Origin: Acidimicrobiales bacterium
GTDB lineage: Bacteria; Actinomycetota; Acidimicrobiia; Acidimicrobiales; Aldehydirespiratoraceae
Direction of reading: 5' to 3'
DNA: 64,000 bases
Assembly: GCA_963422655.1 (NCBI GenBank)
Contig: OY730440.1
Location: 472,550-536,549 of the forward strand
The translations under genes and the position numbers were made by a program. A model generated the notes under the pieces. That model was given only the letters and a program-made list of their open reading frames with translations, made no database searches and had not been told where the DNA came from. Each line of letters begins with the position of its first letter. The first letter of the stretch is position 1. Shown piece after piece: positions 17,925-64,000 of this stretch.

Positions 17925-18679
17925 GTTGTCAGCAACACGACGACCGTCGCCGAATTGAAGGTCGCGTGGGACCAGATTGCCGGTCCGAGTCGACCCGTCC
18001 GCCAAACCAGTATCCCGTTGACCACACCCACCAGCACCAGGGCCGGGAACTGCACACCCTGGAAATGCGAAGCAGCGAACAGCAGCGAAGCACAGCCGAT
18101 ACCGGCGATGGGGCCCAGCCAGTCGTGCAACGCTCCTTGCAGCAGGCCCCTGTAAAAGACTTCCTCGACGATGGGGGCGCCGATGATCGTCATCAACGTC
18201 AGGGCGACGACATCGAGGATGCCGCCGGCCTGATCCACCAGCGACCGAGCCGGCCCTCCCACGTCGAGGTCACCGAACAGCCGCATGATCAGCAGGTAGA
18301 GCAGCGGGACGAGTACGAACTGTAGTCCGATCCCGGCCCCGATTCCGATGCCCACATCCCGAGGACGCATGCTCCAGCCCATCTGGGACTTCCAGTCGAG
18401 CCCGCTACGGCGGGCCAGTACCGGGGCGCCGATCAAGCCGACCCATAACGGAGCTTGCAGAAAGACCAACCAGCCCAAGGGGATAGGGACGCGATCCCTG
18501 ACCAGCTCGACCCCTCGAGCCAACTGCATGGTCGTGCGACCGAGCGCGCTGCCGATTTCGGGCACCAGCACCAGCTCGTAGCCTCCCGCCGCGGCTACCA
18601 GGCCCACGACGACAGCACTGACCACGAAACCGAAAGCGAAGCCGGCCAGCGCCCACAAGAGCCGTGCCCGAACCGCCAT
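17921..18679 (-). CDS. CPBP family intramembrane glutamic endopeptidase (CAAX protease-like)
   Basis: Motif 1 IVEEVFYRGLL, motif 2 LLFAASHF, motif 3 HATFN. Start chosen at MAVRARLLWALAGF; the upstream part of the ORF is poly-Gly antisense to ftsH. Confidence 0.85.
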   Translation of the reverse strand: MAVRARLLWALAGFAFGFVVSAVVVGLVAAAGGYELVLVPEIGSALGRTTMQLARGVELVRDRVPIPLGWLVFLQAPLWVGLIGAPVLARRSGLDWKSQMGWSMRPRDVGIGIGAGIGLQFVLVPLLYLLIMRLFGDLDVGGPARSLVDQAGGILDVVALTLMTIIGAPIVEEVFYRGLLQGALHDWLGPIAGIGCASLLFAASHFQGVQFPALVLVGVVNGILVWRTGRLGPAIWSHATFNSATVVVLLTT

Positions 18680-44988: not shown

Positions 44989-45058
44989 GGGTGCTCCAGG
45001 CTACCGCTACCCCCTCTCAGCACCCCCGGTCGGTGGCCCGCCGGTACGGTGGCCGGAC

Positions 45059-47625: not shown

Positions 47626-47697
47626 ACGGCTCACGACGACATCACGACGACATCGAGGCGGGATAGTCGGGACGGCCGGGGGCGTAGGCTCGCGATC

Positions 47698-48702: not shown

Positions 48703-49814
48703 CCGGACCAGTCGAGCGCATCGAACTCGCCATCGACGCCACCGCCCTGCTGGCTCCTCGCACCGGAATCGGCGTGTTCACGGCCGAGCTACTGAGAGAA
48801 CTGCCCACCCGGTGCGAGCTGGACGTCTCCGCCTTCACTATCGGCCGACAGAACCGGGGCTGGCTGCCCCACGACGTCAGCGATCAGATCCGTGAGGTGT
48901 CGAGCCGGCTGCTCGACGGACGCATCCGCTGGCTGTGGGACCATCTGTCGGTTCCCCGCCTGGAGTGGTTCGCCGGCCCCGCCGACGTGGTCCACGGCCC
49001 CAACTACCTGGTGCCCCCCACCACCCGAGCCGCCACCGTGGTGACGGTGCACGACGTCGGCTTCGAGCACCGGCCCCCCCTGTGCGCCCCCGGGTCGCTG
49101 GGCCATCGTCAGTCGGTGCGCACCGCCATCGGTCGGGGGGCCTGGGTCCACACCCCTTCCGATTACGTGGCCGGCGAGGTCCGCTCCATCTACCGGGTCG
49201 AGGACGAACGGGTGGTGGCCGTGCCTCTCGGCGTCCGACTACCCCGGGCCGGACCGCACCCGACACCGGGATCGCCTTACGTCTTGGCCCTGGGCTCGTC
49301 GGATCGACGCAAGGACCTCACGACGCTGGTGGCGGCCTTCGACTTGCTGGCGGTGCAACATCGGGACCTGCGCCTCGTCCACGCCGGACCCGACGGTGAC
49401 GCCGCCGAGGAATTGGCTGCCGCCATCGGTCTCAGCCCGCACCGGGACCGCATCGAGCAACTCGGCTGGGTCGACGACGCCACCCGGTCGGCGCTGATCC
49501 GGCAGGCCGCGGTGGTGGCTTACCCGTCCCGCTACGAGGGCTTCGGCTTGGTGCCGCTGGAGGCCATGGCGGCTGGGCGGCCGGTCGTCACCACCCCGGT
49601 GTCGGCCATCCCTGAAGTGTCCGGCGACGCTGCCCTCTACGCCGCCGTAGGCGACTGCGACGACTTGGCCGACACCTTGCAGCAGGCCCTCACCGACTCG
49701 GCACTGATCGCTGATCTCGGGGCCCGAGGCCAGGCCTGGGTCGCGGGCTATACCTGGGAGCGCGCCGCCGACGGCTTGATCGACCTGTACCGCCGGGCCG
49801 TCGCCGGCCGCTGA
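48699..49814 (+). CDS. GT4 glycosyltransferase
   Basis: VAYPSRYEGFGLVPLEAMAAGRPVVTT (EX7E). ATGA overlap with the upstream gene. Confidence 0.85.
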   Translation: MTGPVERIELAIDATALLAPRTGIGVFTAELLRELPTRCELDVSAFTIGRQNRGWLPHDVSDQIREVSSRLLDGRIRWLWDHLSVPRLEWFAGPADVVHGPNYLVPPTTRAATVVTVHDVGFEHRPPLCAPGSLGHRQSVRTAIGRGAWVHTPSDYVAGEVRSIYRVEDERVVAVPLGVRLPRAGPHPTPGSPYVLALGSSDRRKDLTTLVAAFDLLAVQHRDLRLVHAGPDGDAAEELAAAIGLSPHRDRIEQLGWVDDATRSALIRQAAVVAYPSRYEGFGLVPLEAMAAGRPVVTTPVSAIPEVSGDAALYAAVGDCDDLADTLQQALTDSALIADLGARGQAWVAGYTWERAADGLIDLYRRAVAGR

Positions 49815-49833
49815 CCTGCGACGGGCCCGGCCG

Positions 49834-51783
49834 GTGCTCACGCTGCTCGCTGCCGACCGGGACGGCGCGACCTCGTCCCCGCTGGCCCAGTCGCTGGCGG
49901 CCCAAACCAGCCGCGGCTGGAAACTGGCTCTCATCGGCGAAGCCGCCCCTGCAACCCTCGAAGGGCGTCTCGAACGCCACGCATCGGCTTCGGACGCCGT
50001 CGAGGCCGTAACTGGGAGTGGAAACACGACCGAGGGCTTCGTGGCCATCGCCGATCTCGACGACCGGCTCCACCCCGACGCCGTCGAGGCTTTCACCGCT
50101 GCCTTCAGAGCCTACCCTGAAGCAGTGGCCGCCTTCGCCGACAGCACCGAGATGGTGCATGGCCGCCAGCAGCCGGTGCTGCGCCCGGCCTGGAACCCTG
50201 ACCTGCTGCGCAGCACCCGCTACACCGGTGATCCCTTCGTGGTGACCACGACAATGCTACTCGCCGCCGGGGCGGCCGGATGGGATCCGGGCCTCGGCGA
50301 GGTCCATCGGTACGACTTGGCACTGCGGGTGAGCGAGCAGGGCGGTCCGGTGCTGCACCTCGGCGCCGCACTCTCGCACCGTGACCGGCCCTGTCCCACC
50401 GACAGCGCTATCGCGGCTGTCGCGGTCCAAGCCCACCTCGACCGCACCGGTCGACCCGCTCGAGCATCGCCGGGACCGCGGGCCGGCACCGTCGTCTGCG
50501 ACCCCGACTTCGACGACCCGCCGTCCGCCTCGATCATCATCCCCACCGCAGCCGCGGCCGACCCCAACGGGCGGCCCTGGATCGAGCATTGCCTGGCCTC
50601 GCTGGCCGACACGCAATGGCCCGATGTCGAGACGATCCTGGTAGTTGGGGACGAATGCCGCCGCGATCTCACCGCTCTGGCCGCGGCCGCCACCCCCCCG
50701 GCTCGGGTGGTGCGCAGCCCGGGCGGGCCGTTCAACTTCTCTACGGCCGTCAACTGCGGCGCGCTGGCAGCTCGCGGCCGTTTGCTGGTGCTTCTCAACG
50801 ACGATACCGAGATTCTCGATCCCTCCTGGCTGGCCCGTCTGGCCGTTCACGCCTCCGACGACGGCGTGGGCGCGGTGGGAGCTCGGTTGCTGTACCCCGA
50901 CATGACGATCCAACACATCGGCATCGTGTTCGACGACGCTCGCCCTCTGCACCCCTTCATGGGCCTGACCACCACCGAGGCGGCCCAGCGGGGCTGGGGG
51001 GTGGCCCGCACCGTGACCGCCGTAACCGGAGCCTGCTTGATGACACGCCGTCGCGAGTTCTTGGCCGTCGGTAGTATGGGCGCCCGGCTCCCGATCGCCT
51101 ACAATGACGTCGACTTCTGCCTGCGCCTGGCTCGCACCGGGAAGCGAACCGTGATCGAGCCGGCAGCCACCCTGACTCACCACGAGAGCCGGACGCGGCG
51201 CCCCCATGCCGAATTGTGGGAATGGCACCGCTTCGTGGGCCGATGGGGCGATGTCGTCGACCCGTGGTACCACCCGGGCTACGTCCGACCTCGCGATCCG
51301 GCCGACCCGCGCCGTGATGTAGACCACGAGTTGCCGGCCGAGCCTCCGATGAACGCCGAGCCCCGGATGGCTGAGGTCGAACCGCGGGTTCACGTCGGCG
51401 CCTGGGGCGGGCTGCGGGGGCCCGGTCTCTCGTCCAACCCGACCCGTCTCCACCTCGAACAACGCGGGTCCACCCCCGTTAGTGTCGCACCGGTGACGAC
51501 TTCGGGAATCGACGTGGAGACAGTGCCCGATGGCGAAGATCCCATCGACAGCAATGAACCCGACCGGCTGCGTCACGAGATCCTGCGGCTGCGTGACGGG
51601 CTCGGCGGAGCCAACGCCGTCAACGCCGCGCTCATGACCCGGGTAGCCGAGCTTGGGGTTCAGGCAGTCGAAATGCGAAACACCCTGGCCGACTACGAGA
51701 AAATGACCCGCTTCGAAAAAAAAGTGACCAGATCGGTTGTGCGAGCCATGGCTGCTGTCTCCCGGCTTTTCCGGCGGCCGTGA
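49834..51783 (+). CDS. GT2 glycosyltransferase with N-terminal extra domain and C-terminal coiled-coil-like tail
   Basis: ASIIIPTAAA..., LLVLLNDDTEI (DxD), GAVGARLLYPDMTIQHIG, and the C-terminal LRHEILRLRDGL...ELGVQAVEMRNTLADYEKM. Confidence 0.8.
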   Translation: MLTLLAADRDGATSSPLAQSLAAQTSRGWKLALIGEAAPATLEGRLERHASASDAVEAVTGSGNTTEGFVAIADLDDRLHPDAVEAFTAAFRAYPEAVAAFADSTEMVHGRQQPVLRPAWNPDLLRSTRYTGDPFVVTTTMLLAAGAAGWDPGLGEVHRYDLALRVSEQGGPVLHLGAALSHRDRPCPTDSAIAAVAVQAHLDRTGRPARASPGPRAGTVVCDPDFDDPPSASIIIPTAAAADPNGRPWIEHCLASLADTQWPDVETILVVGDECRRDLTALAAAATPPARVVRSPGGPFNFSTAVNCGALAARGRLLVLLNDDTEILDPSWLARLAVHASDDGVGAVGARLLYPDMTIQHIGIVFDDARPLHPFMGLTTTEAAQRGWGVARTVTAVTGACLMTRRREFLAVGSMGARLPIAYNDVDFCLRLARTGKRTVIEPAATLTHHESRTRRPHAELWEWHRFVGRWGDVVDPWYHPGYVRPRDPADPRRDVDHELPAEPPMNAEPRMAEVEPRVHVGAWGGLRGPGLSSNPTRLHLEQRGSTPVSVAPVTTSGIDVETVPDGEDPIDSNEPDRLRHEILRLRDGLGGANAVNAALMTRVAELGVQAVEMRNTLADYEKMTRFEKKVTRSVVRAMAAVSRLFRRP

Positions 51784-51804
51784 GCGGGCCGAAGCCTTGT
51801 TCCG

Positions 51805-52806
51805 ATGACCGGACCGGAAGTTGCTCTCGATGGCGTCTCTTTCGACGTGATCGTACGCACCCAGGGCCGACGGCCCGGGTCTTTGCGGGAGGCGATGGTC
51901 AGCCTCGGCGCCCAGACATTCTCCGACTTCGCGGTCATCGTGGTGGTGCATGGCTCATCGGCGATCGCTGCTGCCGTGGAGGCGTCGTTGAGAGAGACAG
52001 GGGACCTGCCCGAGCGCTGGTCGGTCCACACCGTTTCGGGCGGGAACAGGGCTCGGCCTCTCAACGCCGGGCTGGACCGGGCCGGCGGCGACTACGTCAC
52101 CTTTCTCGACGATGACGACCTCGCCGATCCCGATTGGTTGGTCGCCTTTGCACGGGGCGCGGCGGATGCGCCGGGCCAGGTCATCCGGGCGGTGACGAAA
52201 ACGCAGGACTGGACGACGTTGGGCACCGACGAGCCCCGGGCCCCGACCGGGGAGATCACCCGTCACTTCGCCCCCAGCTTCGACCTGCTCGCCCACTTTT
52301 CCCACAACGAGACCCCCATCTGCTCCATCGCCTTGCCCCGGGCGGCTCTGCAGCGTCTGGGGCTGCGCTTCGACGAGACCCTCCCGGTGCTCGAGGACTG
52401 GGATCTTCTGATGCGGTCCGCATTGGGGGTGGGCGTGCATTCGGTACCGGAGGCCACCTCTTTGTATCGGCTCCTCGACACGGCCAACGCCAAGGCTGCG
52501 GTCGATGAACCCGGCTGGTGCCAGGCGTATGACCGGGTGCTCGGTAAGCTCTCCGCTGCGCCCGTCGAGCTGCCCGGCGCCGTGGTGGGGAGGCTGGCCG
52601 CGGCCCATTTCGCACCGGGGGGCCCACCTCTGGCCGTCGCTATGGGCGAACGGCGTTGCCCTGTATCGGATCGAGCTTGTTTCTGCGGCGGTCCGCCCGG
52701 TGCCGCCTTGGTCAGCGAGCCGCTTCTGTCCCTCCGTCTGCGAACCCGACGCCGGATCGGCCGGCTTTTCCGAGCCCCGATCGGCCGGATTCTCCGGAAT
52801 CGGTGA
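51805..52806 (+). CDS. GT2/GT-A fold glycosyltransferase
   Basis: VSFDVIVRTQGRR..., NAGLDRAGGDYVTFLDDDDL (DxD). 333 aa. Confidence 0.75.
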   Translation: MTGPEVALDGVSFDVIVRTQGRRPGSLREAMVSLGAQTFSDFAVIVVVHGSSAIAAAVEASLRETGDLPERWSVHTVSGGNRARPLNAGLDRAGGDYVTFLDDDDLADPDWLVAFARGAADAPGQVIRAVTKTQDWTTLGTDEPRAPTGEITRHFAPSFDLLAHFSHNETPICSIALPRAALQRLGLRFDETLPVLEDWDLLMRSALGVGVHSVPEATSLYRLLDTANAKAAVDEPGWCQAYDRVLGKLSAAPVELPGAVVGRLAAAHFAPGGPPLAVAMGERRCPVSDRACFCGGPPGAALVSEPLLSLRLRTRRRIGRLFRAPIGRILRNR

Positions 52807-52813
52807 CTCACGA

Positions 52814-53632
52814 GTGGTGAAGCTCGCACTGTCACCAGCGACGCGTACCAGCGCCATACTGATCCGCAGCTTCGCCGAGCGCGAGCGCAAGAGCCTCTAC
52901 AAGCGCAGCATCCTGGGCTGGTTGTGGTCGCTTCTCGGCCCCCTGATGGCCGTGGCCGTCTACAGCCTGGTGTTCGGGGTGATCTACCGGGCCCCGCCGC
53001 CTGTTACCGCCAATGGCCGAGCCGAGGTCTTCGCCCTGTACCTGTTCTCGGGCCTGGTGGTGTGGAACGTGTTCACCAACATCGTCACCGGCGCCATGCG
53101 CTGGATGATCGACGTGAGCGATCTACGCAAGAAAACCTACTTCCCCACCGAAACGGCGATCCTGGGAGGAGCCGTCGCCACGTTGCTACAGAGCGGGCTC
53201 GAAGCGGTAGTGCTGATCACCATCATGGCCGTACTCGTCAACATCTCGTGGACGCTGGTGTTGCTGCCGCTGACCCTGATCCTCACAGCCGGGTTCGGTC
53301 TCGGTATCGGCTTCGCAGTAGCGATTCTCAACACCCGCTACCGCGACATCGGGCACTTGGTCAACATCGCGCTGAGCGTGACATTCTTCTTGGTACCCAT
53401 CGTGTACACATCCGACATGGTGCCCGACCGAGCCTACGGCCTACCCGTGAGACGCATTATGGAACTCAATCCCCTGAACGCGGTGATCGGGGTGACCCGC
53501 GACGCTGTCTACTTCCTGCGGACGCCCTCGCCGGGTCAACTGGCTGCGGCCGCGGTCTGGGCCGCAGTGTCGTCCGTCTCGGGCTGGGTGTACTTCAGGC
53601 ACCGGTCCATGGAGATGAGCGAGGAACCATGA
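52814..53632 (+). CDS. wzm: ABC-2 type polysaccharide/teichoic-acid exporter permease (Wzm/TagG-like), copy 1
   Basis: ERERKSLYKRSILGWLWSLLGPLMAVAVYSLVFGVIY with six TM segments. GTG start at 52814/52817, just after the upstream stop. Confidence 0.85.
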   Translation: MVKLALSPATRTSAILIRSFAERERKSLYKRSILGWLWSLLGPLMAVAVYSLVFGVIYRAPPPVTANGRAEVFALYLFSGLVVWNVFTNIVTGAMRWMIDVSDLRKKTYFPTETAILGGAVATLLQSGLEAVVLITIMAVLVNISWTLVLLPLTLILTAGFGLGIGFAVAILNTRYRDIGHLVNIALSVTFFLVPIVYTSDMVPDRAYGLPVRRIMELNPLNAVIGVTRDAVYFLRTPSPGQLAAAAVWAAVSSVSGWVYFRHRSMEMSEEP

Positions 53633-54435
53633 GGACGGCGCCGACCGACGAGAACCGGCTCACCATCTCCGTCATCGACGTCTCCAAGCGCTTCCGGCTC
53701 GAGTTCGACCGGCCCAGCTCCATCAAGGAGGCGGTGCTGCGCTTCGGGCGGCGCGACGTGAGCGACTTCTGGGCGCTGCGCGACATCTCGTTGGCCATCC
53801 CCCGGGGCTCGTTCTTCGGCATCGTGGGCCACAACGGCAGCGGCAAGTCGACCCTGCTGCGACTCATGGCCGGCATCCATCGCCCCACCACCGGAGAGAT
53901 CCACACCCGGGGCCGACTGTCGGCTCTGCTGGAGCTCGGATCGGGATTCCACACCGATCTGACCGGTAGGGAGAACGTGTTCCTGAACGGGGCCATACTG
54001 GGCCTGAACCGGCGGCAGATGGCAGCAGCCATGGACGAGATCGTCGAGTTCAGCGGCATCGGCGACCAGATCGACGTGCCGGTGAAGATCTACTCGAGCG
54101 GCATGTACATGCGCCTCGGTTTCGCCGTGGCCGTCAATGTCGATCCCGAGATCCTCCTCATCGACGAGGTGATCGCGGTCGGTGACGAGGATTTCCAGCA
54201 CAAGTGCATGCGCCACATGGACCAGCTCCGGGCCCGAGGCACCACCATCGTCGTCGTCTCCCACAACACTGACCTGGTGCGCCGACTCTCCGACACCGTA
54301 GGCTGGCTCGACCACGGACGAATGCTCGGCTTGGGCGACCCGGACACGATAGTCGACGAGTACCTCGATAGCGTTACCGACGGAGGGGAAATGACCCTCA
54401 CCGACCGGGACTGCTCGCCACCCGAGAGCATCTGA
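53629..54435 (+). CDS. wzt: ABC-2 type exporter ATP-binding protein (Wzt/TagH-like), copy 1
   Basis: Walker A GHNGSGKST, signature YSSGMYMRLGFAVA, Walker B ILLIDEV. ATGA overlap with wzm. At 268 aa it has no C-terminal carbohydrate-binding domain. Confidence 0.9.
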   Translation: MRTAPTDENRLTISVIDVSKRFRLEFDRPSSIKEAVLRFGRRDVSDFWALRDISLAIPRGSFFGIVGHNGSGKSTLLRLMAGIHRPTTGEIHTRGRLSALLELGSGFHTDLTGRENVFLNGAILGLNRRQMAAAMDEIVEFSGIGDQIDVPVKIYSSGMYMRLGFAVAVNVDPEILLIDEVIAVGDEDFQHKCMRHMDQLRARGTTIVVVSHNTDLVRRLSDTVGWLDHGRMLGLGDPDTIVDEYLDSVTDGGEMTLTDRDCSPPESI

Positions 54436-54438
54436 GCC

Positions 54439-55149
54439 ATGCCGGAGAAACAACCTCGCCTTTCGGTGATCATGCCCTGCTACAACGAAGCGGCCACCCT
54501 CGACCGGGCCGTGGGCCGAGTCCTGGCCAGCCCTCACACGTCCGAGCTGATCATCGTCGACGACGGCTCCACCGACGGCACCAGCGAAGTCCTGGCCAGC
54601 ATCGCTCACGAGCGGGTCCGGGTACTGCACCAATCCCCCAACCGAGGCAAAGGAGCTGCGGTCCGCCGAGGCTTCGCCGAAGCCACCGGCGATCTGGTGA
54701 TCATTCAGGACGCCGACTTGGAATACGATCCCGACGACTGGGACCTGATCCTCGAACCGCTGATCCGAGGTAACGCCGACGTGGTGTACGGCTCCCGGTT
54801 CCAATCGGGCCAGCCCCGACGGGTGCTCTACTTCTGGCACTACGTCGGCAACCGGATCCTCACCACTGCCTCGAATATCTTCACCAACCTGAACCTCACC
54901 GATATGGAGACATGCTGCAAGGCCTTCCGGCGCGAGGTGATCCAATCCATCACCCTCACCGAGAACCGCTTCGGGATAGAACCCGAAATCACCGCCAAAG
55001 TGGCCGTCGGCGGATGGCGAATCTGGGAAGTAGGCATCTCCTACTCGGGACGCACCTACGCCGAAGGCAAAAAGATCGGCTGGAAAGACGGCCTGACGGC
55101 GCTGTGGTGCATCCTCAAATACGGGATCAGCACCAGGATCGAGGCCTAG
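54439..55149 (+). CDS. GT2 glycosyltransferase, polyprenyl-phosphate sugar synthase-like (soluble/peripheral)
   Basis: LSVIMPCYNEA, LIIVDDGSTDGT, IQDADLEYDP. 236 aa. Confidence 0.85.
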   Translation: MPEKQPRLSVIMPCYNEAATLDRAVGRVLASPHTSELIIVDDGSTDGTSEVLASIAHERVRVLHQSPNRGKGAAVRRGFAEATGDLVIIQDADLEYDPDDWDLILEPLIRGNADVVYGSRFQSGQPRRVLYFWHYVGNRILTTASNIFTNLNLTDMETCCKAFRREVIQSITLTENRFGIEPEITAKVAVGGWRIWEVGISYSGRTYAEGKKIGWKDGLTALWCILKYGISTRIEA

Positions 55150-55214
55150 TGCCTCTAGAGTGCTCCGAGCGCGGGCGGCCGCCGACCATTTATCGAAACG
55201 CACCCACCTCTTTG

Positions 55215-57245
55215 ATGCCCTCCCACCGATGGCGATTGCCGTCCTACCCGCTGGCCGTGCTGGCCGTGCTCGCCGTGCTGGCCGTGCTGGCCGGCCCGGC
55301 CACCGCCCAAAGCGCCGAGCCGACCCAGGATCCGGAGACTTCCCCGACCGACGATCTCATCTTCACCTTCACGGGAGGAGGCTGGGGTCATGGTGTCGGG
55401 ATGAGCCAGTTCGGCGCCCTGGGACGGGCCGAAGCCGGGTTCGATCACATCGAGATTCTCGAGTTCTACTATGACGGTACCGAGGTGGTCACCGACCCCA
55501 CTTTGGTGGACGACGATATCGACGTGCTGGTATCGATCGACTCCTCGACCACTTTCGAACCGTCCGGACCGGTGACCGTGGCCATAGACGGATACGACAT
55601 CGGCTCGACCCAGAATTCGCTGACCGTCACCCGAGGTGACGGTGGATGGGTGATCTCCGACAGCGACGGGTCATGGTGCAGCGGGTGGTGCCGCGGTTCA
55701 CTGCTCACCGTGAGCTTCACCGAGGGCGAGCCGGTGGCAGTGTCGAGCGGGTACGCCTACGGGTACGGGCAGCTTCAACTCGTACCGGCCGCGAGCGGCG
55801 GACCAAGGTGTGGCACGGACTCGGATCGCTACTGCGTAGTCATCGGCGACATGACCATGCAGCAGTACCTGTACGGGGTGGACGAGATCTATTCGCATTG
55901 GCACCCCGAGGCCTTGGCCGCTCAAGCCATTGTCAGCCGCAGCTACTCGGTGGCCAGGTCGAACCAACGGGCCCACTGGACCAGCCCGTTCGAGCTCTAC
56001 GACTACGGGGACCAGACCTACCGGGGCTGGATGCCCGAAACCACCGACGGTGCACCGGTGGAGTGGATCGGTGCCGTCGACAGCACCGACGGCACCGTCA
56101 TCGTCCATCCCGAGCCAGAGCCCGGCCCCGAAAACACCAGCCCCGAAGGCGACGGGTACGTGATAACCGCATTCTTCTCGTCATCGAATGGGGGCCATAC
56201 GGCATCATCGGAAGAGCCTTGGACTAAACCACTCCCCTACCTGGTGCCCAAACCCGATCCCTACGACGCCGCCCCCGACCCTGACGGGGCGCCGCAGAAT
56301 CCCTTCCGTTCCTGGACCCGCCACTACACCGCCACCGACCTCAGCCGCTGGCTGGCCGATTACCCCCACGCCGATCTCGATGTGGGTCTGATCAGCCAGC
56401 TCACCATCGAGGGGTTAGGCCCCTCGGGCCGGATCGACGATGCCCTGGTCACTCTGACCGGCACGGACCGCACCCTGGAAGTCCGCGATGACGACGGCAA
56501 CCCCTACGGGTATCGGTTTTTCAAGGCCATATTCATCGGCTGTCAAGCCACGCCCGAGTGTTCGGAGATACACACGACCAAGCTCTGGGTCACCACATCG
56601 GGCACCGCACCCCCAGATCCCGACCCCATGGCAACAGCCGCGACGGTGCCGCCGATCCCAAGCTCAGCTCCTGCCTTCACCGATGTGATCGAAGATGCTT
56701 ACTACGCCCAACCCGTGGCCTGGATGGTGGCCAACAACATCACCACCGGCACCACCCCCACCACCTACTCCCCCCGAAAACCCGTCACCCGAGCCCAAAT
56801 AGCCACCTTCCTATGGCGCCTCGCTGGCAGCCCCGATGCCAACCAGCCCGCCACCGCCTTCACCGATGTGATCGAAGATGCTTACTACGCCCAACCCGTG
56901 GCCTGGATGGTGGCCAACAACATCACCACCGGCACCACCCCCACCACCTACTCCCCCCGAAAACCCGTCACCCGAGCCCAAATAGCCACCTTCCTATGGC
57001 GCCTCGCCGCCAGCCCCACCAGCAAAATACCAATCGCCTTCGACGATGTCTCCCCCGACGCCAACTACGCCCAACCTGTGGCCTGGATGGTGGCCAACAA
57101 CATCACCACCGGCACCACCCCCACCACCTACTCCCCCCGAAAACCCGTCACCCGAGCCCAAATAGCCACCTTCCTATGGCGCCTCGCCGCCAACCCCGAC
57201 GCCTTCGCGTCCGGGGCTGAACTACCCCCTTCGATGCGTCTGTAG
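55215..57245 (+). CDS. Secreted SpoIID/LytB-domain protein with three C-terminal SLH-type repeats
   Basis: Signal peptide RLPSYPLAVLAVLAVLAVLAGPATAQS. SpoIID signature FTGGGWGHGVGMSQFGALGRA. Three repeats of FTDV..AYYAQPVAWMVANNITTGTTPTTYSPRKPVTRAQIATFLWRLA match the SLH pattern F-x-DV...W/Y-A...G...F/Y-x-P...TRA-x-hA. Confidence 0.8.
   Translation: MPSHRWRLPSYPLAVLAVLAVLAVLAGPATAQSAEPTQDPETSPTDDLIFTFTGGGWGHGVGMSQFGALGRAEAGFDHIEILEFYYDGTEVVTDPTLVDDDIDVLVSIDSSTTFEPSGPVTVAIDGYDIGSTQNSLTVTRGDGGWVISDSDGSWCSGWCRGSLLTVSFTEGEPVAVSSGYAYGYGQLQLVPAASGGPRCGTDSDRYCVVIGDMTMQQYLYGVDEIYSHWHPEALAAQAIVSRSYSVARSNQRAHWTSPFELYDYGDQTYRGWMPETTDGAPVEWIGAVDSTDGTVIVHPEPEPGPENTSPEGDGYVITAFFSSSNGGHTASSEEPWTKPLPYLVPKPDPYDAAPDPDGAPQNPFRSWTRHYTATDLSRWLADYPHADLDVGLISQLTIEGLGPSGRIDDALVTLTGTDRTLEVRDDDGNPYGYRFFKAIFIGCQATPECSEIHTTKLWVTTSGTAPPDPDPMATAATVPPIPSSAPAFTDVIEDAYYAQPVAWMVANNITTGTTPTTYSPRKPVTRAQIATFLWRLAGSPDANQPATAFTDVIEDAYYAQPVAWMVANNITTGTTPTTYSPRKPVTRAQIATFLWRLAASPTSKIPIAFDDVSPDANYAQPVAWMVANNITTGTTPTTYSPRKPVTRAQIATFLWRLAANPDAFASGAELPPSMRL
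55251..55295 (+). repeat. 9-bp tandem repeat (ctggccgtg) x5 imperfect, encoding (LAV)n in the signal peptide
   Basis: Units lie at 55251, 55260, 55269 (ctcgccgtg), 55278 and 55287 (ctggccggc). Confidence 0.85.
56673..57190 (+). repeat. Three tandem 183/180-bp coding repeats (SLH modules)
   Basis: Copy starts (gccttc) lie at 56673, 56856 and 57036. Copies 1 and 2 are identical over 152 nt (56673-56824 vs 56856-57007). Copy 3 differs at its 5' end and by one c>t in cccaacctgtgg. Confidence 0.95.
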
Positions 57246-57261
57246 ACACGGGCTGACAACC

Positions 57262-58665
57262 ATGTCCGCCAACCAGAACTATTACGCTCCAGTCATGCCC
57301 AGCCATCCTGTTGCGCTCCCGACCAGGCCGGCCCCGAACCCAGGCCGGCCCGCGCCGATGCTACGGCGTCTAGGGTTCCGCTATCTCCACCTGATCGACG
57401 CCGTAACCCTGTTCGGACTCATGGCCGCCATCACCGTGGCCCGATTCGGATTGGATTGGCCCACCTATCCGCTCCCGCACTACATAGTGGGTTTCGCCAT
57501 CGCCGTGGCCATACACATGACGGTGTACTACTTCGGGGGGTTGTATGAGTACGAGCAAAGGCTGGGCCGCCCCCCCTGGCTGCCCCGCGCCACCATGCTC
57601 ACCGCTATCGCCGTGGGCGTCTCCGCAGCGACAGCGTTGCTGACGGAACGCTACCTGATGCCTCGGGCCAACTTGGTGGTGCTGATGTTGGGGGCCAGCC
57701 TGCTCGTCGCTTTCAACCGGTGGGTGGCCCGATCGGTGCGGTCCCGGCGCTTCGGCCGGCCTCAGGTCCTGCTGGTCGGAACCCCCGACGACACCAAGCC
57801 GGCTCATCGCCATCTCACCGAATCCGAGCCCGGCATCCGCCCCGTGGGCCAGACTTCGGACTTCGGTCGCATATCCACCAAAGTCAACCGGACGAAGGCC
57901 ACCGACGTCTTGTTGATCACCGGAGGATCGCTAAACGAGATCTACCCCGAACCCCTCGGTGAACTGGAGCGGCGCCTTATCGCTGTGTACCAGCGCGTCA
58001 CCCCTTCCGACACCCTCATGGGGCTCCAGCGAACCCGCCAGATCGCAGGCATGCCCTTCGTGGCCCTCCGCACCCACGCCATACCTCGGCACCGTCTCCG
58101 GTTCAAACGGCTCCTGGATTTGGTGTACCTCGTGGCGATGGCTCCCTTCGCCATTCCACTGATAGGCGCGGTTGCCGTCGTCGTGCGGATCCGGGCTGGC
58201 CGGGGCATCTTTTATCGCCAGATACGGGTCGGTTATCGGGCTCAACCCTTCACGATGCTGAAGTTTCGCACCATGGTCGAAGACGCCGAGTCCGCCAGCG
58301 GGCCGGTTCTGGCCAATTCCAGCGATCCCAGGGTCGTTTCCGGACTGGCCTGGTTGCGCCACTCCCGTCTAGACGAGCTACCCCAACTGTGGAACGTGGC
58401 CACCGGCGAGATGTCGATAGTCGGCCCTCGAGCTGAGCGGCCCGAGATGGTAACCGGCTTCGAGAAGCTGATCCCCGGATACAACCGTCGCCACGACACC
58501 CCTCCCGGTATCACCGGCTTGGCCCAGACTCAGGGCCATTACCAGACCGACGCCAACTACAAGATCGGCCACGATCTGCAATACATCGTGAACTGGTCTC
58601 CGATTCTCGATCTCGAGTTGATGGCAAAGGGCCTGATCGTCATGGCCCGCCGTTCGGGCCGGTAA
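57262..58665 (+). CDS. Polyprenyl-phosphate glycosyl-1-phosphate transferase (WbaP/bacterial sugar transferase family initiator)
   Basis: Four N-terminal TM segments precede the C-terminal catalytic domain, which carries KRLLDLVYLVAMAPFAIPL, MLKFRTM, DELPQLWNV and MSIVGPRAERPE. Confidence 0.9.
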   Translation: MSANQNYYAPVMPSHPVALPTRPAPNPGRPAPMLRRLGFRYLHLIDAVTLFGLMAAITVARFGLDWPTYPLPHYIVGFAIAVAIHMTVYYFGGLYEYEQRLGRPPWLPRATMLTAIAVGVSAATALLTERYLMPRANLVVLMLGASLLVAFNRWVARSVRSRRFGRPQVLLVGTPDDTKPAHRHLTESEPGIRPVGQTSDFGRISTKVNRTKATDVLLITGGSLNEIYPEPLGELERRLIAVYQRVTPSDTLMGLQRTRQIAGMPFVALRTHAIPRHRLRFKRLLDLVYLVAMAPFAIPLIGAVAVVVRIRAGRGIFYRQIRVGYRAQPFTMLKFRTMVEDAESASGPVLANSSDPRVVSGLAWLRHSRLDELPQLWNVATGEMSIVGPRAERPEMVTGFEKLIPGYNRRHDTPPGITGLAQTQGHYQTDANYKIGHDLQYIVNWSPILDLELMAKGLIVMARRSGR

Positions 58666-58708
58666 GACCCGACCCGGCGTCGGCGCTTACATCAGGCAGC
58701 AGGATCGC

Positions 58709-59452
58709 TCATCGGGTAGAGATGGCGGACATATAGGCGGACGTAACTCGATCCGGTTCGCCCTGCATGCGGATCAACCCCTTGTCCAACCATATGACCC
58801 GCCCGCAGGTGCTGGTGATCTCGGCCATATTGTGGGTGACGAGAACTACCAGACCCGACTCGGCTCGGATCTCGTCTATGCGCTCCCGGCTGCGCTCCTG
58901 AAATTCTTGGTCGCCTACGGCCAGCACTTCGTCGATCAGTAGCACCTCCGGTCTCCACGCGGTGGCGATGGCGAAGCCGAGTCGGGCCCTCATACCCGAC
59001 GAGTAAGTGCGCATGGGCCGGTCGATGGCGTCGCTCAAACCCGAGAAATCGATGATGGCGCCGGTTCGTTCGCTCACTTCGGCCCGGCTGAATCCCAGAG
59101 CCAGTCCCCCGATCATGATGTTGCGTCGACCCGAGAGCGCCGGTCGCAGCGCCGCCGTAACCCCCAGCAGGGTGGGCCGAGAGCGGGCCATGACCCTTCC
59201 CGACTCGAGGGGCAGCAGGCCGGTCATGGCTGCCAGCAGGGTGGACTTGCCCGATCCGTTAGGTCCGATGAGCCCCACCGTCTCACCACTGTGGAAGTCG
59301 TAGGTCACGCCCTGCACTGCCCGCACGGTCCGGTAGCGACGCTGGACCCGACCCCGAGCGAAGAGTCCCTTGAGCCCGACAGACGCGTCCTCATAGACCC
59401 GGTAGAAGACGTGGACGTCCTCGAGGCTCACGATAGCGGAGGAACCGGTCAT
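58709..59452 (-). CDS. wzt: ABC-2 type exporter ATP-binding protein (Wzt/TagH-like), copy 2
   Basis: Walker A GPNGSGKST, signature YSSGMRARLGFAIA, Walker B VLLIDEV. ATGA overlap with the upstream permease. The 119-aa extension in the ORF track is out-of-gene. Confidence 0.9.
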   Translation of the reverse strand: MTGSSAIVSLEDVHVFYRVYEDASVGLKGLFARGRVQRRYRTVRAVQGVTYDFHSGETVGLIGPNGSGKSTLLAAMTGLLPLESGRVMARSRPTLLGVTAALRPALSGRRNIMIGGLALGFSRAEVSERTGAIIDFSGLSDAIDRPMRTYSSGMRARLGFAIATAWRPEVLLIDEVLAVGDQEFQERSRERIDEIRAESGLVVLVTHNMAEITSTCGRVIWLDKGLIRMQGEPDRVTSAYMSAISTR

Positions 59453-60285
59453 CGTCCGAAGAGATGATCGGCGCGCCGGAAGACCACGAATCCAGCCACC
59501 GGCAGTACGACAGCCCAGGCAATGAACCCGGCCAAGACAAAGGCATCGGCCGGGTGGCCCATCAGGCACCATCGGGCGCAGGTGACCAAGTCGTAAACGG
59601 GGTTCAGGGCGAAGGCCCGTCGCCAGGCTGGGCTGGTGACGAACACGTCGACGCTGAAGATGACGCCCGACACGTAAAACAGCAGCCGAAACACGTGGGG
59701 CAACAACTGGTTGAAGTCGCGCACGGCCGCCCCTATGCGAGCGCTGATGAGGGCGGCGCCGACGTTGAACGAGAACTGACCGGCCAGGACCACAACGAAC
59801 AGGACCCATCGCAGTGCCGGACGCTCTCCGGTTGCCAGCAGGGTGATCAGCACCAGCACCAGCGCGGGAACGAACGCCAAAGTCTGCCCGTTGACAGTGG
59901 AGAGTGGTATCAGGATCCGGGGGAACTGCATGGAGCGGATGAGACTGTGGTTTCGAGGGATGGCAACCCCGGCGTCCTGCATCACCCGCTGGGTCAGATG
60001 GAACATGGCCACTCCCACTACCAAGAACCCGAGAAAGTTGTCAACGCCCCGACGCGTATCGAGCACCACGCCGAAGATCAGGAAGTAGACGCCGATCATC
60101 ATGGCCGGGTTGACGAGGTGCCAGAGCTGCCCCAGCACCGTGTCCATGTTCAGGGCCCGAAGGTCCTGAGCCGGCACAACCACGGCGAACTCCCGCCTCC
60201 GCCAGACGTCACGCAGGTAACTGCCGACACTTTGAGGCTCGGAAAGATCTAGGAGGGGGTGCCGATCTTCGACCATACCTCCCAT
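59449..60285 (-). CDS. wzm: ABC-2 type exporter permease (Wzm-like), copy 2
   Basis: LRDVWRRREFAVVVPAQDLRALNMDTVLGQLWHLVNPAMMIGVYFLIFGVVL with six TM segments. GAGGAG lies 11 nt upstream of ATG 60285. Confidence 0.85.
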   Translation of the reverse strand: MGGMVEDRHPLLDLSEPQSVGSYLRDVWRRREFAVVVPAQDLRALNMDTVLGQLWHLVNPAMMIGVYFLIFGVVLDTRRGVDNFLGFLVVGVAMFHLTQRVMQDAGVAIPRNHSLIRSMQFPRILIPLSTVNGQTLAFVPALVLVLITLLATGERPALRWVLFVVVLAGQFSFNVGAALISARIGAAVRDFNQLLPHVFRLLFYVSGVIFSVDVFVTSPAWRRAFALNPVYDLVTCARWCLMGHPADAFVLAGFIAWAVVLPVAGFVVFRRADHLFGR

Positions 60286-60329
60286 TCTAGGGCGTACTCC
60301 TCAGATGAGAGGTTCTGGAGGAGTGTTGG

Positions 60330-60830
60330 GCTCGGTGCCGGACCAGAAATGCTGCTGGGGGTTAGGGTTCGTTCGTGGTTGGGGATGGCGGGTCAGTTTC
60401 TTGGCGTCGAGGTGGATCGGCTGACCAGGGTGTTTGGGTTGGTCACGTCGGATCAGTTGCCGAGTTTGGTGTGTGTATTGTGCTTTCGGCGTATCCGTTG
60501 GGTGCGCCGGGTGGGTTTGTGGTTTTTGCGAGTGTTGTGTGGGTTTGGTTGGTGTTGGTTGTGGGGGTTGTGGTTTGTGGGTTGGTGAGTTGTATGCCGA
60601 ATGGTAGTTTTTGGTTGGTGTTGGGGTTGTGGTCGCCGGGGTGGATTTTGCAGGTGTTGATGGTGATGTGTTTGGTGGTTTGGCCGGGGTGGAATACGAG
60701 TTTGCCGGTGTTGGTGATGTAGCCGGGTGGGTGGGGGTGGATGCCGGGGTGGTCGGTGTGGGCGTGGCCGGCGTCGGGGTGGCTGGCGTCGCGTGGGCAG
60801 GTGTGTGTTGTTGGTAGCCGTTCGGTGGTT
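60330..60830. other. Zone of extreme strand compositional asymmetry (G+T-rich on + strand, C+A-rich on - strand)
   Basis: Hand counts: 60511-60660 is 134/150 G or T (C=7, A=9). 60541-60590 is 49/50 G or T with no C. 60361-60420 is 47/60 G or T. The zone spans both the 3' half of ORF 60443..61039 and the intergenic DNA down to wzm copy 2. Confidence 0.9.
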
Positions 60831-61039
60831 ACGATTCCTATGGCTGAGCAGCCTTGGTCGGGCCATGTGAGCGGATCCGGGTTCTTGTTTTTACAGTTCC
60901 GGGCTGCTAGCCCGGCCGGGTGGGCGGGCGTGGTGGCCCACTCGACGGTGATGGTCGTGTTTTCGGGGACGGGTCTTGATAGTCGGACCGCGAATCGGAT
61001 GGGCGTGCCTCGGGGTTGTTCTTCACCAGTGACCGACAT
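60443..61039 (-). CDS. Calx-beta-like beta-sandwich protein with aberrant Thr/Pro/Asn/His-rich C-terminal half (possibly decayed)
   Basis: RFAVRLSRPVPENTTITVEWATT ... GKLVFHPGQTTKHITINTCKI ... LPFGIQLTNPQ follows the Calx-beta pattern (h-x-V-x-r ... V-x-Y-x-T ... G-x-L-x-F-x-PG-x-t-x-K-x-I-x-I ... F-x-V-x-L-x-NP). The start lies 9 nt after the stop of the repeat-protein ORF. All three minus frames are open here because T and G are scarce, so an open frame alone is weak evidence. Confidence 0.4.
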   Translation of the reverse strand: MSVTGEEQPRGTPIRFAVRLSRPVPENTTITVEWATTPAHPAGLAARNCKNKNPDPLTWPDQGCSAIGIVTTERLPTTHTCPRDASHPDAGHAHTDHPGIHPHPPGYITNTGKLVFHPGQTTKHITINTCKIHPGDHNPNTNQKLPFGIQLTNPQTTTPTTNTNQTHTTLAKTTNPPGAPNGYAESTIHTPNSATDPT

Positions 61040-61048
61040 CCGGATCGT

Positions 61049-64000
61049 TTAGACTGCGGGCGGGCAGAGTTTCTTGTTTTCTGGGTGGGTGTGTTCTCCG
61101 GTGCGTGGAGCGCGGATCGTTGCCCAGACGATTTCTGTTCGTGTCGTGCTGGTGGTAGAGCAGACCGGTTCTAGGTGATGGTGACATCCGGTGTCGGGGC
61201 TGGTGCTGCCGGTTTGGGGGTATTGGTCACGGTGCTGACCTGACGCACAGTTGTGGTGCCACCGGCCCGGGTTGCCGGGTATTTCTTGTTTGGGGAACGT
61301 TTCGGTGTACACGGGCTGCCAGGGCCCGGTGGAGTGCCCGTAAGAGGTGTACTCGTAGGTTCCGTTGCTGCGGGTCGTGTCGTGACCGCCTGGTGGTGTG
61401 CAGTGGGTTCGGGTCAGAGTAACCCGGCACGTCTGAGGGTCCTTGACGACTTTGCCGGTGCTCGGGTCGCATCTCCACCAGTGAACCGTGTGGGTAGCCC
61501 ACGTCTTGTTCAGGTCGATAATTTGCACAGCGGCTGTGATCGTCACGTCGGGCACCGCGCCGCGTAACACCCATCCCTGCCCTGCCGGGTCCGCGACCCC
61601 TGCCAACACCGGGGGAGCCAAATCCGTTCTAACATATTTGGAGTCAGAGTATTTCACCGCGGGCGGGACCGGTCTCTTGTTGTCGTCGAGCACCGTCGCC
61701 GGTCTAGCCGGACACAAGTCCACCCACCTCCCCGCATCACCCACGTCGATTATTTTGGTTGCCGTGTTCCGGTCGTACACCGCATGCCACGGCCCGGTCG
61801 AGTGCCCATAATAGGTGTACTTGTAGGGTCCGCTGATACGGTGCGTGCCGTGACCGCTCCACGGCACGCAATGGGTTCGGGTCAAAGTCACCCGGCACGT
61901 CTGAGGGTCTTCGACGATCTTGCCGGTACCGGGGTCGCATCTCCACCAGTGAACCGTATGAGTAGCCCACGTATTCGCGTCGTTACGAACATAGGTCGTC
62001 ACCTCACGCGTGACCCGGTCTCTAGCACCTCGCAGCTCCCAGCCCGGCCCGGCCGGTTCCGGCGGGGCTCGTAACGGTTCAGAAACCGCCGCCGCGGTCT
62101 CGTCGGGTTTGGTTTCTGCTGGCCGGGCCCGCTCGATTTGGGTGATCTCGGTCGGTGGAGTCACCGAATGGCACTGGTTCACCCACCTGCCCGGGTCGCC
62201 CTCGTCGATTATCTTGGTGGTTGTGTTCCGCTTGTACACCGGATGCCAGGGCCCGGTCGAGTGCCCGTAAGAGGTGTACTCGTAGATTCCGGTGCCGCGG
62301 GTGTCGCCGTGACCGCCCCACGGCACGCAATGGGTTCGGGTCAAAGTCACCCGACACGTCTGAGGGTCTTTGACGATCTTGCCGGTACCGGGGTCGCATC
62401 GCCACCAGTGAACCGTATGAGTAGCCCACGTACTCGTGTCGTTACGAACATAGGTCGTCACCTCACGCGTGACCCGGTTTCTAGCGTTTTGGAGCTCCCA
62501 GCCCGGCCCGGACGGTTTCGGCGGGGCTCGTAACGGTTCAGAAACCGTCGGGGTGGTCTCGTCGGGTTTGGTTTCTGCTGGCCATGCCCGCACGATTTGG
62601 ATGATCCTGGTCGGTGGGGTCACCGAAGCGCACCGGTGCACCCACACGCCCGGGTCGCCTTTGTCGATCGTTTCGGTTGCCGTGGTCCGGTCATACACCG
62701 CATTCCAGGGCCCGGTCGAGTGCCCGTAAGAGGTGTACTCGTAGACTTCGCTGATACGGTGCGTGCCGTGACCACCTGGTGGTGCGCAGTGGGTTCGGGT
62801 CAGAGTAACCCGACACGTCTGAGGGTCCTCGACGATCTTGCCGGTGGCCGGGTCGCATCGCCACCAGTGAACCGTGTGGGTAGCCCACGTCCGGGACAGA
62901 TCCAACCGGATGGTCGTCACCTCACGGGTGATCTGGTTTCTGGCGTTTCGCAGCACCCAGCCCGGCCCGGACGGTTTCGGCGGGGCTCGTAACGGTTCAG
63001 AAACCGTCGGGGTGGTCTCGTCGGGTTTGGTTTCTGCTGGCCATGCCCGCACGATTTGGATGATCTCGGTTGGTGGGGTCACCGAAGCGCACCGGTGCAC
63101 CCACACGCCCGGATCACCCTTGTCGATTATCTTGGTTATCTTGGTTGCCGTGGTCCGGTCATACACCGCATGCCAGGGCCCGGTCGAGTGCCCGTAAGAG
63201 GTGTACTTGTAGGGTCCGCTGATACGGGTAGCGCCGTGACCGCCCGACGGCGCGCAGTGGGTTCGGGTCAGGTCCACCCGGCACGTCTGAGAGTTCACGA
63301 AGACTTTGCCGGTGGCCCGGTCGCATCGCCACCAGTGAACCCTATGAGTGGCCCACGTCCGGGCCAGGTCCAACCGAAATGTCGTCACCTCACGCGTGAC
63401 CCGGTCTCTAGCACCTCGCAGCACCCAGCCCGGCCCGGCCGGTTTCGGCGGCGGCGCCACCCTGGCTGTCACCGCGTCGGCGGTCTCGATTTTCGACGGT
63501 TCCGGTCCCGGCCGGTACGCGACCGTGACATCAGCGGGGATGTCTTTGGTCCGGCACGCTATCCCGACGTCCAAACCGATGTTCGACCACAACGTGTTGA
63601 CATACTTTTTCGGGGCCGCGCCGATCTTTTTGGGGGTTACCACCGTTTCCCAGGTCACCGCCACCCTGAACCGGGCGTCTCTACCAGTCGGGCCCGCGAA
63701 CTTGGCGTACAAGTTGCCGGTGCACGGCTGTATCCACGCCCAGCGCTTGTCCTCGCGGCACGTGTTGCCGCCCGGCCCGCGAACGTAACGGGCCCCGCCC
63801 CCGTAAGCCGCTACCGTCGCAGCGCCGCCCGACCCGCTGATCCACCACCTCAACTCGACAGGGCGGCTAGACACCGAACCGCAAACACCGGCCCTGTCAA
63901 AAGCAACCGGCACCGCCACTTTCGCGGTCAACGACCGGCCCGTGTCGCCTTTCAGCCCGCCCGCCGGCGAAATGCCCGGCCCGAACCGAGAACCCGACCC
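61049..64000 (-). CDS. Large repeat protein (more than 980 aa, N-terminus outside the window): five tandem Cys/Trp/His-rich 153-156-aa modules of unknown family
   Basis: The ORF-track start at 63931 is a TTG. The frame stays open to 64000 (my translation: GSGSRFGPGISPAGGLKGDTGRS-LTAKVAV...). The core TWATHTVHWWRCDPxTGKxVxDPQTCRVTLTRTHCxPxGGH...YEYTSYGHSTGPW occurs five times. TAA stop at 61049-61051. Confidence 0.75.
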   Translation of the reverse strand, partial: GSGSRFGPGISPAGGLKGDTGRSLTAKVAVPVAFDRAGVCGSVSSRPVELRWWISGSGGAATVAAYGGGARYVRGPGGNTCREDKRWAWIQPCTGNLYAKFAGPTGRDARFRVAVTWETVVTPKKIGAAPKKYVNTLWSNIGLDVGIACRTKDIPADVTVAYRPGPEPSKIETADAVTARVAPPPKPAGPGWVLRGARDRVTREVTTFRLDLARTWATHRVHWWRCDRATGKVFVNSQTCRVDLTRTHCAPSGGHGATRISGPYKYTSYGHSTGPWHAVYDRTTATKITKIIDKGDPGVWVHRCASVTPPTEIIQIVRAWPAETKPDETTPTVSEPLRAPPKPSGPGWVLRNARNQITREVTTIRLDLSRTWATHTVHWWRCDPATGKIVEDPQTCRVTLTRTHCAPPGGHGTHRISEVYEYTSYGHSTGPWNAVYDRTTATETIDKGDPGVWVHRCASVTPPTRIIQIVRAWPAETKPDETTPTVSEPLRAPPKPSGPGWELQNARNRVTREVTTYVRNDTSTWATHTVHWWRCDPGTGKIVKDPQTCRVTLTRTHCVPWGGHGDTRGTGIYEYTSYGHSTGPWHPVYKRNTTTKIIDEGDPGRWVNQCHSVTPPTEITQIERARPAETKPDETAAAVSEPLRAPPEPAGPGWELRGARDRVTREVTTYVRNDANTWATHTVHWWRCDPGTGKIVEDPQTCRVTLTRTHCVPWSGHGTHRISGPYKYTYYGHSTGPWHAVYDRNTATKIIDVGDAGRWVDLCPARPATVLDDNKRPVPPAVKYSDSKYVRTDLAPPVLAGVADPAGQGWVLRGAVPDVTITAAVQIIDLNKTWATHTVHWWRCDPSTGKVVKDPQTCRVTLTRTHCTPPGGHDTTRSNGTYEYTSYGHSTGPWQPVYTETFPKQEIPGNPGRWHHNCASGQHRDQYPQTGSTSPDTGCHHHLEPVCSTTSTTRTEIVWATIRAPRTGEHTHPENKKLCPPAV
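61241..63427 (-). repeat. Tandem array of five 459-468-bp coding repeats
   Basis: The unit marker (ccca + g/t + ccc..., encoding PxG(P/Q)GW) occurs at 61570, 62038, 62497, 62956 and 63424, giving periods of 468, 459, 459 and 468 bp. There is a 110-nt perfect match between 62497-62606 and 62956-63065. Confidence 0.9.

Follow-up and report, generated by a model that had tools for sequence, protein, structure and literature searches.

A conserved glycan exporter beside a species-restricted giant repeat gene in an Acidimicrobiales bacterium: probable insertion of a surface-protein cassette

Introduction

The Wzm-Wzt pair of Mycobacterium tuberculosis is a galactan exporter of the ABC-2 type (PMC13018209) and, together with the O-antigen exporters, the wall teichoic acid exporter TagGH, the display of S-layer homology (SLH) proteins on pyruvylated secondary cell wall polymers (SCWPs; PMC6030368) and the giant adhesins built from Calx-beta or Ig-like repeats, it is among the closest described counterparts of a string of genes in a 64,000-nucleotide stretch of DNA from an Acidimicrobiales bacterium (contig OY730440.1 of assembly GCA_963422655.1, positions 472,550 to 536,549), here called the window. 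On the minus strand of this stretch the gene for a giant repeat protein is followed by an open reading frame (ORF) that had been described as Calx-beta-like, by a spacer, by a permease gene (wzm2) and by an ATPase gene (wzt2), and the last of these converges on a gene for a polyprenyl-phosphate phosphoglycosyl transferase (PGT). The original prediction offered two explanations for this arrangement, a cell-surface module in which polymer export is combined with a polymer-binding or polymer-decorated protein, or a junction between native and acquired DNA. The gene order that it described, the skewed spacer of 157 nt, the 9-nt gap between the two upstream ORFs, the ATGA coupling of wzm2 to wzt2 and the convergent PGT gene were all borne out at their coordinates (Table 1).

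We propose, with a probability of about 70%, that these genes meet at an insertion site and that their adjacency carries no sign of shared function, because two parts that appear unrelated lie side by side. One part would be an old exporter, wzm2-wzt2, with a promoter of its own, which belongs to a conserved cell-wall glycopolymer locus of Acidimicrobiia that also holds wzm1-wzt1, a GT2 glycosyltransferase gene, a SpoIID/SLH gene and the PGT gene, with LCP ligase and nucleotide-sugar enzyme genes nearby. The other would be a species-restricted surface-protein cassette, a lipoprotein gene followed by the giant Cys-rich repeat gene, which would have been inserted into the short stretch that, in relatives, separates the divergent Wzy_C and wzm2 genes and would afterwards have undergone tandem duplication, spread to a second locus, acquired an IS481 neighbour and diverged fast.

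The exporter and its conserved locus

Like the O-antigen and galactan exporters (PMC13018209), the pair studied here joins an ABC2_membrane permease to an ABC_tran ATPase encoded by overlapping genes, with the wzm2 stop and the wzt2 start sharing ATGA at 59449-59452, and it has polyprenyl-phosphate glycosyltransferase and GT2 genes as neighbours. It differs from them in that two such exporters occur in one locus, in that Wzt2 consists of the nucleotide-binding domain only and lacks the C-terminal carbohydrate-binding module, and in that its scores are far below equivalog level. The best NCBIfam matches of Wzt2 are TagH and galactan Wzt/RfbE and that of Wzm2 is galactan Wzm/RfbD (E=8e-15), all under the equivalog cut-offs (55 versus 380 bits and 157 versus 400 bits). 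No equivalog-level match to galactan Wzm/Wzt, TagGH or KpsMT was obtained, all NCBIfam scores lying far under the curated cut-offs. The comparison with TagGH is similarly divided: the nucleotide-binding domains of Wzt2 and Wzt1 both match TagH (NCBIfam, E=1e-46 to 1e-57) and an LCP ligase gene is present in the window, but the initiating enzyme is a Bac_transf PGT and not of the TagO type, and none of the ORFs scanned was recognised as a gene of teichoic-acid synthesis (TagB/F, TarI/J). What was found, then, is a transmembrane permease, an adjoining separate ATPase gene and an association with PGT and glycosyltransferase genes. Family and synteny together identify Wzm2/Wzt2 as an ABC-2 (Wzm/Wzt-type) glycan exporter, and they are the reason why we assign to it, as the most likely cargo, a polyprenyl-diphosphate-linked glycan that would be begun by the convergent PGT and moved across the membrane.

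The wider distribution of wzm2 shows the setting in which this exporter normally occurs. Homologues of Wzm2 (n=706) reach 53-71% identity in Acidimicrobiia, and those with names belong to Acidimicrobiia, Acidimicrobiaceae or Candidatus Poriferisodalis; a scan of genome contigs with Wzm2 gave only a relative at 28% identity. When the neighbourhoods of the homologues were mapped by tblastn, the two-exporter locus recurred in more than ten other Acidimicrobiia loci, in full in L004/5, L008 and L012-14 and in part in L003, L015 and L025. Its order is big-GT2 <- unknown <- Wzy_C <- / -> wzm2 -> wzt2 / <- GT2 <- PGT <- SpoIID/SLH (<- GT2) <- wzt1 <- wzm1, and from wzm1 through wzm2 the order in the window is that of the relatives. 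In L004, L008 and L012-14 the orthologues of wzm1-wzt1 stand where wzm1-wzt1 does here, and many Acidimicrobiia have orthologues of both exporters in the corresponding positions, at 65-74% identity. The PGT gene adjoins wzm2-wzt2 in L004, L008, L012-14, L020, L022 and L024, PGT and GT2 genes are neighbours of the pair in at least ten related loci, and in remoter loci (L016, L020-22 and L024) the genes form a co-oriented string, PGT>GT2>wzm2>wzt2. This recurrent gene order places both exporters in one conserved cell-wall glycan locus, of which the PGT gene is, by synteny, the conserved partner of wzm2-wzt2. It was thus misleading to describe the second exporter as lacking glycosyltransferase partners. 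Against the sister strain, the ratio of non-synonymous to synonymous substitution (dN/dS) is 0.06 for wzm2, 0.09 for wzt2 and 0.22 for the PGT gene, which shows wzm2 and wzt2 to be under strong purifying selection.

One conserved member of the locus is missing here. The wzt2 and PGT stop codons are 43 nt apart (58666-58708); relatives have a conserved GT2 gene of 331 aa at this gap or upstream of wzm2, and no trace of it was seen anywhere in the window.

The other envelope genes of the window include those for an LCP ligase, PMT_2, GT2, GT4 and nucleotide-sugar enzymes, and the two-exporter glycan locus, PMT_2 and GT genes included, was noted at 44885-58665. The SpoIID-SLH gene, whose start is a candidate, ends in three near-identical SLH repeats (56551-57245, plus strand), where A+C on the coding strand is 0.65-0.70 and G at third positions only 0.16. 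The position of this three-SLH protein gene between the exporters, here and in relatives, recalls the display of SLH proteins on pyruvylated SCWP (PMC6030368), and the polymer of the conserved locus may be a ligand of the SLH protein. The likeness is limited by the giant protein having no SLH domain and by the lack of a CsaB-type pyruvyl transferase among about 35 window ORFs, a non-exhaustive scan of a gene that could also lie beyond the window. A full-text literature search combining Acidimicrobiia, S-layer homology and cell wall returned no paper; the envelope of Acidimicrobiia is apparently little studied, and the conserved locus is the better lead to the wall polymers of these bacteria.

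The start of wzm2 and a predicted leaderless promoter

The regions upstream of wzm2 orthologues cannot be aligned save for a TAGNNT hexamer that lies 6-8 nt before an in-frame ATG or GTG. In its more general form, TANNNT followed after 6-8 nt by an in-frame ATG or GTG, the pattern is present at 15 of 16 non-redundant wzm2 loci, as against an expectation of 0.25 and a maximum of 4 in shuffled sequences. In M. tuberculosis the actinobacterial -10 element is TANNNT, centred 7-12 bp upstream of the transcription start site (TSS), and a leaderless arrangement is described (PMC3898074). The placing of TAGNNT before the wzm2 start, at a distance of 6-8 nt in 15 of 16 loci, is alike, although the host belongs to Acidimicrobiia and not to Mycobacterium and the TSS of wzm2 is a predicted one. 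Since the first ATG of wzm2 (60285) falls within the conserved hexamer, the likely translation start is the second, at 60276. We infer an independent leaderless promoter because the -10 and start pattern is so widely conserved, and wzm2-wzt2 would most likely be transcribed from it as a leaderless mRNA beginning at ATG 60276.

The giant repeat gene and its detached C-terminal segment

The giant gene enters the window with its 3' 2.95 kb. The original prediction had placed the start of the repeat ORF at 63931, but the frame stays open as far as the edge of the window, and the complete protein, of 1538 aa, has a hydrophobic signal or anchor at its N-terminus. Its five tandem repeat units are 65-91% identical to one another, and an AlphaFold2 (AF2) model of one unit consists mostly of beta strands, at low confidence, with a predicted local distance difference test score (pLDDT) of 55. 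No Pfam, NCBIfam, PHROG or PADLOC family matches the giant protein, and a PDB profile search with the repeat alignment gave no match; PHROG and PADLOC matches of Wzt2 reflect generic ATPase similarity. The only database relative of the giant ORF of the window is the identical 1538-aa protein P0001, and among 5.8 billion proteins searched the giant protein occurs only in its own cluster at 90% identity. HMMER on 1.84 billion representatives added three marginal matches, of which P0128 (E=6.5e-5, to the pre-repeat region) is the only plausible one. By these searches the giant protein is an orphan restricted to the species or strain group.

The ORF of 198 codons that follows had been taken for a gene of its own. 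Across the 9-nt gap (61040-61048) it keeps the frame of the giant ORF, therefore a single TAA is all that parts the two, and in the sister strain, where this codon is GAA, they form one fused protein of 1745 aa (P0002). Comparison of the two strains thus identifies the "Calx-like ORF" as the giant protein's C-terminal segment, cut off in the window by one TAA, which may be either a stop gained here or a stop lost in the sister. In a paralogous copy (L009) the same segment bears a 165-nt deletion and a frameshift. The annotation is thereby corrected: the two "surface protein" genes become a single interrupted giant gene, and the wzm2 start is shifted.

The name Calx-beta-like must also be weakened. 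The only family match of the segment is to Pfam Calx-beta (PF03160) with 12.5 bits (E=0.15) against a gathering score of 27 bits, and it covers profile positions 55-109 of 119; the best PDB match, the Calx-beta domain of integrin beta-4 (E=0.11), lies on the same motif of the C-terminal half. The 198-aa ORF has no homologue besides itself. We take it for the C-terminal end of the giant protein, Calx-beta-like and possibly degenerate, and putatively coding in this strain. The comparison with giant adhesins of Calx-beta or Ig-like repeats is to be read in the same manner. Shared with these are a long secreted or anchored protein, tandem beta-rich repeats, rapid strain-to-strain turnover of repeats and an end segment that bears the C-terminal motif of Calx-beta, G-L-F-PG---K-I-I ... 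F-IQL-NP, but the repeats here match no Pfam, PDB or NCBIfam family, they carry 4 conserved Cys together with many Trp and His, and the Calx-beta match is sub-threshold.

The cassette, its copies and its insertion site

The flanks beyond the window were taken from a sister-strain contig (L002/L028), which is about 99% identical in wzm2, wzt2 and PGT. The gene order there is two epimerase genes and then, on the other strand, an intact Wzy_C gene. Next comes a unit that occurs three times in tandem and combines a lipoprotein gene (385, 367 or 362 aa) with a giant-gene stub of 47 aa and a 5' fragment of Wzy_C; after it stand IS481, a further lipoprotein gene, the fused 1745-aa giant gene, wzm2 and wzt2. 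In relatives Wzy_C and wzm2 are direct divergent neighbours, and only about 30-115 nt of divergent region separates them, exactly where the cassette sits in the sister strain. No giant protein was found in the related Acidimicrobiia loci compared, and the linkage is missing in at least 15 orthologous loci of other lineages; comparison across related genomes, which the original prediction had proposed, finds it absent in every one outside the same species.

A second copy of the cassette lies by lepA-hrcA-dnaJ-rsmE, with a LysM gene and without an exporter downstream, and the genome of the window has a second giant copy of its own (P0003). The junction of native with acquired or lineage-specific DNA, one of the two explanations originally offered, is supported by a conserved locus that lacks the giant protein elsewhere, by a giant protein confined to a single cluster, by a paralogue that has no exporter downstream and by the place of the sister-strain cassette between Wzy_C and wzm2. 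No support beyond co-orientation and a missing terminator came to light for the alternative of a cell-surface module as it had been put forward.

The cassette also behaves differently from its neighbours. The repeats of the giant gene are 5-23% divergent between strains, as against about 1% in the native wzm2, wzt2 and PGT genes, and the dN/dS of the giant gene against the sister is 0.23-0.5. The GC content at third codon positions (GC3) is 0.61-0.74 in the cassette and 0.78-0.85 in native genes. The giant orphan protein is a strain-variable surface feature of local interest. The divergence at 61700-63451 against L002 points to a shuffling of repeats, to gene conversion or to diversifying selection.

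Five lipoprotein paralogues of 362-385 aa were seen (L028 3225-9936; L009 6448-9936), their genes always upstream of the giant gene or its stubs. Each carries a lipobox and repeats rich in Thr, Pro and Glu, and a C-terminal domain of about 170 aa is conserved among them; none has a Pfam match.

The cassette has no transposase or recombinase of its own, the cassette genes being without Pfam hits, and no real terminal inverted repeats, the only matches being of low complexity at 70-79%; the IS481 of the sister is an insertion of its own within the tandem array. At the two junctions the nonamer TAGAATGGG before wzm2 (60281-60289) and TAGAGTGGG (L028 3004-3012), the latter 12 nt from the Wzy_C start in the sister strain, share 8 of 9 nt, with weak statistics. 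Both are -10-like, and relatives have a single TAGGAT at the corresponding place. The nonamers may be a duplicated promoter or target site, again on weak statistics. A 10-mer shared by the junctions of the dispersed and local copies was rejected as a chance match inside the LysM gene.

Table 1. Positions of the principal features, in coordinates of the window.
Feature	Position	Strand	Basis or remark
wzt2, ABC exporter ATP-binding subunit, 247 aa	58709..59452	minus	Pfam ABC_tran (PF00005), E=2e-19, 71 bits
wzm2, ABC-2 permease	59449..60285 (ORF)	minus	Pfam ABC2_membrane (PF01061), E=7e-9, 36 bits (cut-off 26.9 bits)
PGT, polyprenyl-phosphate phosphoglycosyl transferase	57262..58665	plus	Pfam Bac_transf, E=4e-51; NCBIfam EPS_sugtrans, E=1e-84
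Candidate -10 hexamer TAGAAT of wzm2	60289-60284	minus	7 nt upstream of ATG 60276
A+C-rich spacer, 157 nt, cassette tail abutting the wzm2 -10 box	60286..60442	minus	Composition
"Calx-like" ORF, 198 codons	60443..61039	minus	In frame with giant ORF
In-frame TAA splitting the giant gene	61049..61051	minus	DNA alignment; GAA in sister L002
Giant Cys/Trp/His-rich repeat protein gene, 3' 2.95 kb	61049..64000, continues past window edge	minus	Full product 1538 aa
Five tandem repeat units of 153-156 aa, 4 conserved Cys each	61178..63436	minus	Period 459/468 nt; protein alignment
wzm1-wzt1, other exporter of the locus	52814..54435	plus	Pfam and NCBIfam; orthologues at 71-74% identity
SpoIID-SLH cell-wall protein gene, between exporters as in relatives	55215..57245	plus	Pfam SLH x3 and SpoIID; synteny

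Weighing the alternatives

Several observations weigh against the insertion-site reading and, for the most part, speak for a functional surface module, in which the lipoprotein gene, the giant gene and wzm2-wzt2 would be co-transcribed. In such a module the exported polymer would be bound by the giant protein, would decorate it or would be required by it, for instance by way of the Thr/Pro-rich segments or the weakly Calx-beta-like end of the protein. The genes are co-oriented; a search of the minus strand for intrinsic terminators found none between the giant gene and wzm2, and the spacer shows no significant structure (fold z = -0.9). A GAGGAG lies 10 nt before the first wzm2 ATG (60285), a possible Shine-Dalgarno (SD) sequence that could serve translation of a read-through transcript, and with the wzm2 promoter predicted from conservation, read-through co-transcription from the giant gene is possible. 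The linkage of giant gene and exporter is kept in the sister strain. The dispersed cassette copy holds a Wzy_C fragment, therefore it was probably copied from the exporter-adjacent site, and this site seems to be the original home of the cassette. The polymer itself may have been altered along with the insertion, since the GT2 gene between wzt2 and PGT has been lost here. To these points may be added the PMT_2-family glycosyltransferase gene within the window and the weak Calx-beta signal. Nevertheless we regard such a module as quite unlikely, as the linkage is missing in every one of the orthologous loci of other lineages, a paralogous cassette stands elsewhere without an exporter, wzm2 has its own conserved -10 and leaderless start, the cassette and exporter genes differ greatly in rate, and the C-terminal segment is severed by the stop in the window and has suffered a deletion or frameshift in the paralogue. 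The original prediction had looked to promoters or terminators separating the genes as signs against it, and on this the outcome is partial: a separate promoter is indicated by conservation, but no terminator was found.

With the insertion-site reading preferred for the locus as a whole, two narrower alternatives concern its parts. It is unlikely, in our estimation, that the 198-codon ORF is an independent and functional gene of Calx-beta type, translated by re-initiation at ATG 61039, 9 nt past the TAA. This reading gains from the window having a TAA and, four codons on, an ATG where the fused allele has GAA and ATA, from the public record annotating a gene (P0126), from the ends of P0003 and P0004 at the same PPAV as in the window, so that 3 of the 4 known copies end there, and from the 3' half of the segment, with 3 synonymous and 0 non-synonymous differences. 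Yet no SD sequence precedes ATG 61039, the Calx-beta score is far under its cut-off, and AF2 on the 198-aa ORF gives a pLDDT of 37; the 5' half of the segment has a dN/dS of 0.95, and substitutions in the A+C-rich segment, few as they are, favour no frame (4 of 12 and 1 of 10 synonymous). Because T makes up only 8.5% of the ORF, an open frame of equal length arises by chance in 2.7% of shuffles, and the compositional skew described below reaches third codon positions and the non-coding spacer. That the second exporter was recently duplicated, or acquired horizontally together with the surface-protein genes, might be supposed from the presence of two exporters in the locus and of atypical DNA beside the second, but is hardly credible. 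Wzm1 and Wzm2 share about 24% identity and Wzt1 and Wzt2 36-38%, which led us to reject the "copy 2" of the original prediction as a recent duplicate of the first. The positional orthologues of both exporters and the native codon composition of wzm2 and wzt2 (GC3 of 0.78-0.79) agree with this, and on identity and synteny the two exporters are old paralogues.

Composition of the cassette and further observations

The spacer before wzm2 has a minus-strand composition of A 0.27, C 0.43, G 0.17 and T 0.13 and, its -10 box aside, cannot be aligned with the regions upstream of wzm2 in relatives. It is part of a strand-polar skew that runs through the cassette. The coding strand is G+T-rich in the leader, the lipoprotein gene and the N-terminal third of the giant gene, where third positions have C of 0.12-0.14 and T of 0.30-0.36; the repeats of the giant gene are compositionally neutral; and the last 1.1 kb (61400-60300, minus strand) is A+C-rich, up to 0.87, with a third-position G of 0.095 in the 198-codon ORF. 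The skew extends to third codon or synonymous sites and to the non-coding flanks and spacer, and stops at the wzm2 -10 box. It was mapped to 60300-61400 of the window and to 8600-11600 and 14400-15400 of L028.

Such a skew is the pattern expected of C-to-T and A-to-G changes on opposite strands at the two ends, and its source could be convergent transcription or the deamination of exposed single strands during duplication of the cassette. An unusual local process of strand-specific mutation, or one linked to replication, might be shaping the cassette; we hold this to be very unlikely, and if true it would make the cassette a self-duplicating, fast-diversifying surface-protein element. Terminal inverted repeats were rejected as a source of the skew, the G+T-rich 5' and A+C-rich 3' ends not being real inverted repeats of each other, as was ongoing hypermutation, the singletons among the five lipoprotein paralogues having no strong directional bias. 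Between strains the A+C-rich part diverges at baseline, as the flanking native genes do.

Elsewhere in the window three long ORFs with coding-like GC3 have no Pfam family, two on the minus strand (15180-18005 and 21296-22759) and one on the plus strand (46393-47625). Two further segments, 17401-17700 and 24001-24450, are also A+C-rich on the plus strand.

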